Shown: one piece after another, positions 12,001 to 15,000 of the stretch | Numbering within the stretch: the stretch's first letter is position 1 | How the letters are laid out: each line of letters begins with the position of its first letter | Assembly: GCA_033764955.1 (NCBI GenBank) | Contig: JANRIL010000005.1 | Coordinates: 1 to 64,000 of the forward strand | Length of the DNA stretch: 64,000 nt | Source of the DNA: Cyanobacteriota bacterium | GTDB lineage: Bacteria > Cyanobacteriota > Cyanobacteriia > Thermostichales > Thermostichaceae | Reading direction: 5' to 3' | Program-made: the position numbers

Positions 12001-15000
12001 CGTGAATGTATATGTGAATGTATAGCTGTATGCTTCTGGATTCCTAAATTTTGGCACTTGCCGATCTCAAAGCAGCCATTGACGGTCTTTCACCCACCGC
12101 CTTACCCACAACCTGAGAAGGCTAACGTCGGGATCCGCTTTAACTCCGATTTTTGCGTAGCGGATCCCGGTTTCCCAATTGGTCAGATCACTAATTTTGC
12201 CAATTCTCTAGGCTGCTCAGGCTGAGGGGGATCCATTCTCCGGTGTGAGTTAAGCCCAGAAGCATGTCGGATTGAGCCGCAATCACTTCACCCGTTAAAG
12301 CACAACATTCAGACTGACGGGCGGTGGCGGGTATGGTAGCGCGAATATCGGTTTGGCTGTGGCGGGCGGGCAAATCAAGGGAATGATGATAAACGTAATT
12401 CCACAAAACCTCTCTCACCAGGGCTTGATAGCCTTGATCTCCTGCTAGCACTTTCAGCCGATCCTTCAGTTCCCGTTCCAGGCGAATACTGGTTACTTCC
12501 ATCTCAGTAGTAGAAGTCTTGGGGGCGGTATAGGTCATCATGACGAATCTCCTTAAAAAACAGTCGATACCTGTAGTATCAGTGTAGTATGTCCTGGGGA
12601 GATGTAAAGGCAGTCATGAGGATTTCTACGCCAAGCATGGATGGATCCCTGCTCATCCCCTGGCTCTCCGCCATTAGGTCAAGGGGTCTGGCCAAGGGAT
12701 TGATAGTGCAGCACCTGAGGGGGCTGGGCAAAATAGGAACCAATCAAACTCCGCCATTGCTCAAATTGAGGGGATTGTCGGAAATTGACCAAATGAGCTT
12801 CTAGAGAGTCCCAATAGATTAGTAAAGCATATTGATGGGGATCCTCTAGGCAACGGCGCAGATGGTGGCGACGATAGCCCTCAGTTTGGGTGAGATAAGG
12901 AAAAGCCTGAGCAATGGCGACCTCAAAGGCGGCTGTTGTCCCAGGCTTAATTTCAAGAATGGCAATTTCTAGTACTTCTAACCGGTTCATGGGTGCCTGT
13001 TCATGTGTGCAGTCCACATTCGGTTTTGCCTTTGCCCTGCCAGCGACCCGAGCGGGGATCCTCACCGGCAGCAACGGCGGCGGTGCAATGAATGCAACCA
13101 ATGCTGGGATAATTTTGGTCGTGCAGAGGGTTGTAGGGAACTTGCTCCGCCACAATATAGTCCCAAATTTGTTGATGAGTCCAGTCGGCTAACGGATTGA
13201 TTTTGATCAGGTTGCGTTTGGCATCCCACTGCACTTTGCCGATGGCGGCACGAGTGGGGGCTTGTTCCCGCCTCATGCCCGTGATCCAAGCCTGGTAGCG
13301 TGCCAGGGTGCGGTTGAGGGGTTCGACTTTGCGAATACCGCAGCACAGGTCAGGGTTGCTCTTATAGAGTTCGGGCTGGTACTGAGCCGCCTGTTGGTCG
13401 GGGGTAAGGAGGGGAGAAACCGTCTCTAATTGCAGGCTAGGATAGCGCTCCTGAATGCGAGCTTTCAGGGCTAGAGTTTCGGGAAAGTGAAAGTCGGTAT
13501 CCAAAAAGAACGCTTGGGCTTTTGGCTGGATGCGGCTGAGCATGTCAATCAGCACCACATCCTCAGGGCCAAAGCTACAGGCTAACACCAGCTCCTGCCC
13601 AAAGGCTTGGCTGGCCCATGCCAGAACCTCAAGCGGACTGGCGGCTTCAAATTTTTCACTAAGGGCTTCGACTTGGGGCTGATAGTGTTGCGACAGAGAA
13701 CGAACAGTATTGAGTACGGCGGTCATGGTGATCGTTGAGTCGGTTTGTTAAGTCAGTATATTTAATCTACCTTATTTCGGTCGGGATTAAGGTGTTTAGA
13801 AAAATTTACAACTTTAGGCGCGGCGGGAGTGGCAACGGAGGGATCCCCTGCCGAGGACGGGAGCAAAATGCGCAGAAGGGCTAAGGCAACGAGATGAGGG
13901 GCAGGGGAGAAGTCCAAGCGGCGGGGATGCGGATCCGTTTCTCGCCCCGCCGATCCCACGGTTTGCCCATAACCAATCCATGCCAAAGGGGTTGTGGGGA
14001 AGCAGATAAGGCTTGAACGGGATGCCAATGGTAGCGCAACCAGCCGTAGTCTCCTCCCGAAGCGAGGGCTAGCTCGATGACCCGAAATGCTGAAACAGGG
14101 CCAATCAACGCCGGAGCCACCAGATAGGGAATGTGGTGATGCAGGGTTACCTTGGGAACATGCAAATGACCGGATAGCACTGCCGCGACACCGCCGTGGG
14201 ACTCTAACAAGCGCCGGAGGGAAAGGGCGATGTCTGGTAAAACCCGATACTTGCGATAGAGGAGGGGCGCGAGAGGGGGCTGATGGATCAACAAGAGGAT
14301 CCATTGGTGGGCATAGGTGGTGAGTTGTTCCGCCAGCCATTGCAATTGCCCAGGTCGCAGGAGACCCTGGGGATCCGGGAAGGTACCGATGCTGGCATCA
14401 AGCGCAATCAGCCGCAGACCGGGTGAAGGGGAGAGGGAATAGTCCACATATCCGGTGGGAGCCAGATCAAAAGCGAACTGCTGCCGACACCACTGCACAA
14501 ACTCGGAGCGATCAAACCGTTGCCGCCGCCGCAAGGTGTCGATGTCGTGGTTGCCGACGCTCAGGTAATAGGGCACGGATAACTGACTGACTATCTCCTG
14601 GAACTGCTCAAAGCTGGCGGGATCCGCTTGATCCACCAAATCTCCCGTAAACACCACAAAATCCAGATCGGGGATCCCTTGCAGTTCCGCAATCGCCTGC
14701 CGAAGTTGGGTGGCTGGAGCCTCCGACATCCACCAACAACGACAGCCCGTGGGGGGCATGAGGTGAATATCCGACAGGTGAGCAAACTTGATGGAACGGC
14801 CATTTAGCATAAGTTAAGATCCTTCACACCTCACGAGCGCATCATAAACAAAACTTCACCCTTCGCCTAGCACACTTCTCTTAACCTGACAAACCCTCGG
14901 TTAAGTGGGGCAGGGATCCCCAGACAAAAAAGCCCCAACTGGTGAGGAGCAGCGGGGCAGAGGAGGATGTTTATTTTCCCTACCTGTTTAGCCTAGAGGG

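Follow-up and report, generated by a model that had tools for sequence, protein, structure and literature searches.

Does TrcR, a repressor tied to translational stress in cyanobacteria, also govern the genes for Ro60 and its Y-like RNAs? The question is raised by a window of 64,000 nucleotides (contig JANRIL010000005.1, positions 1 to 64,000) from a cyanobacterium of the Thermostichaceae, in which a trcR-like gene, g02382, is preceded by an operator-like box. In PCC 7120, TrcR has been shown to repress its targets and to be lost when elongation is blocked (PMC10272220, PMC8421152). Work on what Ro60 and Y RNA do in bacteria covers very few species (PMC7790460), and one obstacle that has been stated is ignorance of when the genes are on. 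A preliminary description of this genome proposed that the TrcR regulon extends to the Ro60 units. The literature that we searched holds no link between TrcR and Ro60 or Y RNA; reviews on cyanobacterial Ro60 variants may lie outside that search. Box counts compared with shuffled sequences, the locking of the boxes to promoters and the controls from genomes in which TrcR was not found all bear out the proposal, and on these sequence grounds it is quite probable that TrcR controls the Ro60 units.

The trcR gene and its own operator

The gene g02382 (12191..12541, minus strand) encodes a protein of 116 aa. A ribbon-helix-helix region makes up its N-terminal part, at about residues 14-54, and its C-terminal domain is small, beta-rich and without an assigned role. 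As had been reported, its match to RHH_1 in Pfam is weak (E 0.089), and its phage relatives are confined to Nodularia phages, with 9 Nodularia records and none else among 50,697 phage records. These include vB_NpeS-2AV2 and vB_NspS-kac65v151, the two phages that have been named for TrcR homologues (PMC10272220); no box was found in the 8.3 kb scanned around the Nodularia phage trcR homologue. In the protein collection g02382 has 1,228 relatives, and most of the best 120 have 111 aa, the length of All0854. TrcR was found in 59 of the 62 cyanobacterial genomes searched, at 55-64%.

Neighbours and operator were examined at the 30 best TrcR loci. The box is present at all 30, and 10 contain the exact 18-mer of PMC10272220. 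A divergent HNH gene occurs at 29 of these loci and a divergent alr0857-like gene at every one, and in PCC 7120 all0854 is divergent to asr0855-alr0856-alr0857 (PMC10272220). Homology to All0854 was judged from this synteny, the exact 18-mer, the shared Nodularia phage proteins and the N-terminus implied by the trcR primer in PMC10272220, MHTIAR, with which several TrcR homologues start. Residues V16-T17-S18-I19-R20-L21 and L46 are invariant among 32 TrcR sequences, and A74 is kept in at least 90% of TrcR sequences; L46 and A74 of g02382 correspond to L44 and A72, the loss-of-function positions of PMC10272220. In a model of the monomer (pTM 0.45) the ribbon was not formed, and no known fold matched it meaningfully, so the ribbon-helix-helix fold of TrcR rests on PMC10272220.

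The box reported upstream of g02382 was located at 12572..12591 (no strand assigned), where two ATACTACA half-sites stand 11 bp apart, at -50 to -31 from the ATG. This putative autoregulatory operator shows 0 mismatches to the two-half-site model described below, and the trcR footprint in PCC 7120 covers -53 to -28 (PMC10272220). Inside it lies a predicted -10 element of the trcR promoter, TACACT (12581..12586, minus strand), which is the trcR -10 hexamer in PCC 7120 too (PMC10272220). A Shine-Dalgarno sequence, AAGGAG (12549..12554, minus strand), precedes the ATG at 12541 by 7 nt. Synteny, phage relatives, conserved residues and operator position all agree with the original assignment, and g02382 is almost certainly an ordinary orthologue of TrcR (All0854); the conservation of TrcR and its sites has already been stated in PMC10272220.

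The operator model and its sites in the genome

The pattern first proposed was ATACTACA-N3-GTATTAC, and exactly the three sites given for it at up to 2 mismatches in the 3.8-Mb assembly were recovered, at C2:75781 (0), C2:74192 (2) and C38:12590 (2). Ribbon-helix-helix dimers bind in pairs one helical turn apart, a principle that we carry over to TrcR here. The model used in this study consists of two half-sites, TGTARTAY, in either orientation and 11 or 12 bp apart; the half-site was set before the Ro60 loci were considered, and mixed orientation was added after they had been seen. The operator known from trn, all8564, rtcB and dpsA is a pair of 9-nt repeats that are separated by 2-3 nt and cover the -10 element and the start site, and the repeats confer regulation when transplanted (PMC8421152).

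In this genome the model scored 3 sites at 0, 3 at 1 and 18 at 2 mismatches, and most of the latter lie away from promoters. On the delta plasmid it also picked out the sites of trn and all8564. In this genome, the -10 element is overlaid by a box at just 4 of the 642 sigma-70-like sites, namely the C2 unit (twice), the Ro60 unit on C30 and rtcB on C42, and rtcB is a proven TrcR target in PCC 7120 (PMC10272220). Among the 9 TTGACA/TARTAT promoters of the genome, 3 score as boxes, and all 3 are candidate targets. A pattern scan of 20 relatives that was blind to gene content returned 13 places, all of them before HNH genes (5), tRNA arrays (2), rtcB (2), trcR, a TROVE gene, an RNA ligase gene or a DUF6745 pair. 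The two-half-site model may serve as a nearly background-free predictor of TrcR targets.

The gene hflX was considered as a target and rejected: it has a 1-mismatch box, yet 0 of 19 relatives have one at 0-1 mismatch, and hflX is unchanged in the trcR mutant of PCC 7120 (PMC10272220). A good box score alone is therefore no proof. An 11/12-bp box occurs at 1 of 30 loci of all0263-like AAA genes, and half-sites 9-10 bp apart occur before 10 of the 30, a count made without a shuffle comparison. These loci indicate that 11 bp is not the sole spacing and that the rule is incomplete. Further 1-mismatch sites were seen at C1:8421, C14:126614 and C47:98228, two of them inside ORFs and one before a LysR-like gene.

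Two boxed promoters in the C2 unit

All of the genes described for the C2 unit are present: an HNH gene (172 aa), an alr0857-like gene (126 aa), tRNA-Glu(TTC), tRNA-Gln(CTG) and a 164-nt RNA shelled by tRNA-Ala. The near-perfect box said to head the unit also exists, but the unit has two boxed promoters, not one. The first (C2:75780-75799) heads the HNH and alr0857-like genes, and the second (C2:74191-74210) heads the two tRNAs and the 164-nt shelled RNA.

The leader of the HNH-alr0857 pair contains a terminator and a complementary upstream motif, and leaders of the trcR-divergent type have them in 26 and 29 of 30 cases, respectively; neither feature was found before all8564. The C2 pair therefore represents the asr0855-alr0857 operon, and asr0855-alr0856-alr0857 is a known TrcR-target operon in PCC 7120 (PMC10272220). 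In this genome the operon has been split from trcR, and each part keeps a copy of the once-shared operator. As for the second promoter, the C2 tRNA-Gln(CTG) and the trn copy of PCC 7120 are 90% identical over 61 nt and tRNA-Glu(TTC) shows 73-75% to array tRNA copies, and neither matched any other tRNA of this genome. Since both resemble array tRNAs and not the genome's own, they are the remnant of an L-array; with array-like tRNAs, an HNH gene upstream and its own box, this piece is the one for which the remnant first suggested for the unit holds.

Boxes ahead of the Ro60 units

Two sets of loci with the 66-aa gene were analysed. The named set was drawn from the best 80 of 590 GTDB loci, of which 72 were used after 7 with less than 1.2 kb upstream and 1 without a 66-aa match had been excluded. 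The sampled set comprised 44 loci from 43 of 401 genomes, our own included, and 1 locus with less than 900 bp upstream was left out. Within 900 bp upstream, 67 of 72 loci of the named set and 38 of 43 of the sampled set showed an 11-bp box at 0-1 mismatch. Both counts overstate independence, as Nostoc dominates the named set and a single genus supplies 17 of the 44 sampled loci. Dinucleotide shuffles gave expectations of 0.0 and 0.07, respectively, and flank windows gave 5 of 793. Thus, the boxes claimed before the Ro60 operon in many cyanobacteria hold. The earlier pattern, at up to 3 mismatches within 900 bp, recovered 68 of 72 and 36 of 43 loci, and the regex published in 2021 (PMC8421152) 13 of 72 (0.17 expected) and 8 of 43 (0.03 expected). 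By genus, 17 of 20 had a box at 0-1 and 19 of 20 at 0-2 mismatches within 1100 bp.

In the two sets, 3 loci scored 2 mismatches and 7 were misses. A perfect box stands at about -1030 in two of the misses, three more belong to the tails of head-boxed arrays, another is in an array cut by the contig end, and the last shows a 3-mismatch site that follows TTGACA. The span of 150 bp used at first had hidden most boxes, given the 68 of 72 and 36 of 43 found within 900 bp: boxes of the earlier pattern within 150 bp do exceed expectation in the sampled set (5 of 44, 0.13 expected), but none of the 72 named loci has one. The 67 of 81 loci that had counted as box-less thus fall away as counter-evidence, as boxes head the whole unit or the tRNA array. 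Nor is there the fixed distance of 89-108 bp that had been described: the box lies anywhere between -59 and about -1030 relative to the 66-aa gene, and this spread arises from an RNA or a small ORF that frequently separates the two. The tandem half-sites overlap the -10 element or the start of a sigma-70 promoter, and at 107 of 111 loci a perfect TTGACA precedes the second half-site by 17, 18 or 25 bp. The position of the box is locked to the sigma-70 promoter, not to the gene. Assembled contigs from RNA runs of a related Nostoc span the Ro60 unit; such contigs show neither start nor level.

The Ro60 promoter on C30 carries three half-sites over TTGACA-18-TAGTAT. Its box has 4 mismatches under the earlier pattern, as had been noted, but 2 under the two-half-site model, the score of 18 sites in the genome. 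TrcR also occurs in every one of the 42 other genomes that carry the 66-aa gene. At 7 loci (L123, L133, L154, L156, L158, L160 and L163), a trcR-family gene, HNH, alr0857 and the Ro60 unit are contiguous, some of them with a tRNA array of 26-32 genes.

A divergent family with the Ro60 fold

The Ro60 unit of this genome (C30:15237-18682) comprises the 66-aa gene, a tRNA-like RNA, a 398-aa AAA ATPase and a protein of 476-481 aa; it encodes no recognisable DNA-binding protein. Pfam searches gave no match to TROVE (PF05731) or vWA_Ro60 in the genome or in the 476-481-aa protein, the Rfam YrlB search of the genome was blank, and phmmer with the 476-481-aa protein found no solved Ro60. At the level of structure, the 12 best Foldseek rows for this protein were all Ro60/TROVE structures (E 4e-10), and it aligned with D. 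radiodurans Rsr (2nvo) over 435 residues with a Z of 18.6 and an rmsd of 5.2, the match showing a HEAT-repeat ring followed by a vWA domain. The protein therefore belongs to a divergent family with the Ro60 fold, which is 11-16% identical to solved Ro60s and 68-72% identical across cyanobacteria. Annotations call its members hypothetical or vWA proteins, and 495 clusters were counted at E <=1e-30. For the 66-aa protein, resemblances to the beta-grasp fold are weak (TM about 0.6) and stay under the bar for naming it.

The AAA family of the 398-aa ATPase is mostly 400-404 aa long and occurs in 25 of 26 genomes of one large family. At 1 of 30 AAA loci the next gene was recognised as what we take to be a threonine dehydratase, as after all0263. 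These C30-type ATPases are probably orthologues of All0263, an AAA target of 400 aa that is 24-fold derepressed in the trcR mutant of PCC 7120 (PMC10272220).

RNAs of the divergent Ro60 units

The RNA of the Ro60 unit combines a long stem and internal loop with tRNA arms, and 20 of its 32 pairs covary among 24 sequences. In many species a second copy is nested in a tRNA shell, within its anticodon arm; the shell bears G3-U70, the pair of the Ala identity rule. A long stem with an internal loop and a tRNA-like domain beside a Ro60 gene is typical of Y RNAs, and the topology here is unlike that of YrlA. The Ro-binding motif GNCGAAN0-1G is absent from all 55 shelled RNAs, and its 28 matches in 125 core segments all lie in the D arm; Rfam reported tRNA models only at the C2 and C30 RNAs. 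The name Y RNA is thus apt for a tRNA-like RNA with a long stem by a Ro60 gene but not for its motif, and we use it for the divergent units as an analogy.

Canonical TROVE loci and genomes with no TrcR match

The strongest case for control of genuine Ro60 and Y RNA comes from the canonical TROVE loci, which the preliminary description did not include. Among the 401 genomes, Pfam TROVE was found in 36 from this organism's own class and in 11 from other classes; loci from 29 of the 36 and from all 11 were used. The canonical loci carry the TROVE (PF05731) signature. Within 1200 bp, 16 of the 29 have a box at 11 bp and 18 at 9-12 bp, against 0.07 expected. These boxes head tandem tRNA-shaped RNAs with a Y-type bulged helix, which carry CUUGCC-loop-GGCCGAAG or near variants; 4 of the RNAs scored weakly on Rfam YrlA (29-33 bits, cut-off 69).

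No box was found within 1200 bp at 11 of the 29 canonical loci, though their genomes encode TrcR, and 6 of 12 families had none. Among these loci, one has a box at -1975 behind an inserted ORF and another is situated within an array. Of the 11 loci of other classes, 6 of which are GC-rich (0.57-0.66), none was boxed, and TrcR was not found in those genomes. The 9 viral loci of the divergent Ro60 family, the hosts of which were not identified, had no box at 0-1 mismatch, and 7 of them keep the 66-aa gene. In PCC 7120, the deletion RNA-seq table of PMC10272220 has no row labelled TROVE or K11089; alr0740 (508 aa) is called a slipin by its authors.

Origin and meaning of the Ro60 operators

Control by TrcR might tell us little about Ro60 if the units had simply inherited their repression from the promoter of a mobile tRNA L-array, kept after the tRNAs were lost. 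Arrays of 29-32 genes do end with the Ro60 unit in L133, L156, L160 and a Kovacikia plasmid, the viral relatives are also found in tRNA arrays, and the C2 piece is an array remnant. Three observations nevertheless make this origin improbable. First, boxes at 0-1 mismatch occur at many array-free loci in 17 genera. Second, the Ro60 unit of L163 has a perfect box of its own besides that of the array. Third, the canonical TROVE genes, a separate family mostly off arrays, are boxed with another geometry.

It is more improbable still that a protein other than chromosomal TrcR, either a factor encoded in the unit or a TrcR paralogue, binds the Ro60 motif. Such a binder would fit the inverted form of most Nostoc Ro60 sites, since trcR and trn, whose sites are proven, have direct repeats, and divergent trcR copies do occur in some array loci. 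The inverted form is, however, also found before rtcB and, in an autoregulatory position, between the trcR copies and HNH in L133, L156 and L160; moreover, 40 of 42 genomes have a single TrcR match, and the Ro60 unit contains no candidate DNA-binding protein. The idea that the box is a mere by-product of strong AT-rich promoters could appeal to TAGTAT being a -10 hexamer in its own right, to the -10 element lying within one half-site and to the 3 of 9 TTGACA/TARTAT promoters that score as boxes. It is scarcely credible given that these 3 are themselves candidate targets, that 4 of 642 sites are boxed overall, that the second half-site, in the spacer or across the start site, is kept in two registers (17-18 and 25 bp) and that transplanted repeats confer regulation (PMC8421152).

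On the reading that we favour, in which TrcR controls the Ro60 units, the repressor would sit on paired pseudo-palindromic 9-bp half-sites with the core TGTARTAY, in either orientation and mostly 11 bp apart with 9-12 tolerated, and the predicted pairs would overlap the -10 and/or the start site of strong sigma-70 promoters, that of trcR included. When translation elongation is blocked, TrcR protein would fall in this organism and the promoters would open. The same operator appears to head the unit of the 66-aa beta-grasp-like protein, tRNA-like RNA(s) and divergent Ro60 in nearly all sampled carriers and about 60% of the canonical TROVE/Ro60 genes with Y-type RNA arrays. Loss of the repressor, not activation by a ligand, would then co-induce RtcB, Ro60, tRNA-like RNAs and spare tRNAs as a kit for RNA repair and quality control.

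The boxed promoters of this genome are those of trcR, HNH-alr0857, the array remnant, the Ro60 unit and rtcB, and 4 of these 5 are fragments of a super-locus that other cyanobacteria have in one unbroken stretch. A bolder and rather doubtful extension is that TrcR is the ancestral master repressor of this super-locus (trcR, HNH, alr0857, tRNA array, nested RNA, ubiquitin-like protein and Ro60), that its undescribed Ro60 binds new Y-like RNAs and that the two form a stress-induced particle. The Y-like RNA with an Ala-like shell (G3-U70) could then be charged and enter the ribosome, and the particle might act on stalled ribosomes or broken tRNAs.

Control by TrcR would suggest when and why bacteria make Ro60 particles, and it would make the function of cyanobacterial Ro60 and Y RNA directly testable. 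If it is true, chloramphenicol or deletion of trcR should switch on two Ro60 systems in culturable cyanobacteria, and the RNAs, partners and substrates of Ro60 should become purifiable.

Comparison with known systems

The nearest known system is TrcR/All0854 of PCC 7120 (PMC10272220), which has the same family, operator position and -10 hexamer as here and shares as targets trcR, the HNH-alr0857 operon, rtcB, the tRNA array and probably the all0263-type AAA gene. In PCC 7120 trcR and the HNH operon are divergent neighbours, whereas here they lie on different contigs. PMC10272220 gives an 8-bp consensus in place of two half-sites, and the targets that it lists include no Ro60 or Y RNA. The operator of PMC8421152, the main text of which does not contain the words TROVE or Y RNA, consists of direct repeats, whereas inverted or mixed forms at the same spacing occur here and dominate before Nostoc Ro60 units.

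The divergent Ro60 shares the HEAT-ring plus vWA fold with bacterial Ro60/Rsr, and as in YrlA systems its tRNA-like RNAs lie within a few kb of Ro60 on the same strand (PMC4201824). It differs from Ro60/Rsr in the lack of a TROVE Pfam match and in its 66-aa beta-grasp-like partner. The long stem of its RNA continues the acceptor arm, whereas that of YrlA continues the anticodon arm, and, unlike YrlA, its RNAs lack GNCGAAN0-1G and one is nested in a tRNA-Ala-like shell (PMC4201824).

In Salmonella, rsr-yrlBA-rtcBA places Ro60, tRNA-like Y RNAs and RtcB under common control by RtcR upon RNA or translation damage (PMC7790460). RtcR is an activator with a CARF sensor that acts with sigma-54 on one operon (PMC7790460), whereas TrcR is a repressor at sigma-70 promoters with a dispersed regulon that includes tRNA arrays. 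TrcR has already been likened to RtcR for rtcB (PMC10272220); what is new here is that the Ro60 units and the canonical TROVE genes appear to be under the TrcR operator as well. If so, two unrelated regulators, RtcR and TrcR, would have converged on the same kit of RtcB, Ro60 and tRNA-like RNA, which would argue that Ro60 serves RNA repair under translational stress.

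Leader of the HNH gene and the 3' flank of trcR

At the C2 unit (L001) of this genome, the leader of the HNH gene contains a terminator hairpin and an upstream motif (C2:75425-75530, minus strand). The hairpin is conserved immediately 5' of the alr0856-type HNH start in 26 of the 30 leaders divergent from trcR (L036-L065), and the motif was found at 29 of these 30 loci. When the 3' arm of the terminator is missing, its 5' arm is the pairing partner of the upstream motif. Judged from sequence, terminator and motif together form a candidate attenuator. No Rfam match was obtained for this element, and none was found upstream of all8564. 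The leader at C2 also holds an 83-codon ORF (C2:75487-75738, minus strand), equal in length to asr0855; no homologue was detectable in other trcR loci. Directly 3' of trcR itself, a long inverted repeat (window 12120-12175), built from GGATCC-containing repeats frequent in this genome, is possibly the trcR terminator.

Further trcR copies and predicted targets

Additional, longer trcR copies head tRNA-array loci in two genomes (L156 in G080 and L160 in G277), each with its own predicted operator. In one relative, G401, TrcR boxes lie upstream of a tRNA-binding/RNA-ligase gene (L270:4922) and of a gene pair encoding a 107-aa protein and DUF6745 (L271:4556), which on the strength of these boxes are candidate new targets. 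In this genome, a 1-mismatch box lies 124-143 bp upstream of hflX (C32:2296-2315, L002). We rejected hflX as a target because this box is not conserved in 19 relatives and because, in PMC10272220, the hflX level was the same in the PCC 7120 trcR mutant.

Tandem and nested tRNA-shaped RNAs at Ro60 loci

On large viral contigs (L303-L311), the divergent Ro60 gene is accompanied by the 66-aa gene in 7 of 9 loci, often with tRNA genes around it; no TrcR boxes were found at these loci. The 207-211-nt RNA of L069-L148 (for example, L069 at about 5380-5590) has a tRNA-Ala-like shell whose anticodon arm holds a second tRNA-like domain, and the anticodons of this inner domain vary freely. In its C2 counterpart (73398-73561, minus strand), the inner tRNA has shrunk to a hairpin. 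A Gln/Ala-rich ORF (C2:73963-74253, minus strand) separates tRNA-Glu from the array promoter. The cyanobacterial Y-type RNAs that precede canonical TROVE genes (L203-L227) consist of 1-5 tandem tRNA-shaped units, in which the Ro-binding helix lies within an extended anticodon arm and the arrangement is not permuted. This architecture may account for the YrlA calls with a "longer acceptor stem" that appear in PMC4201824.
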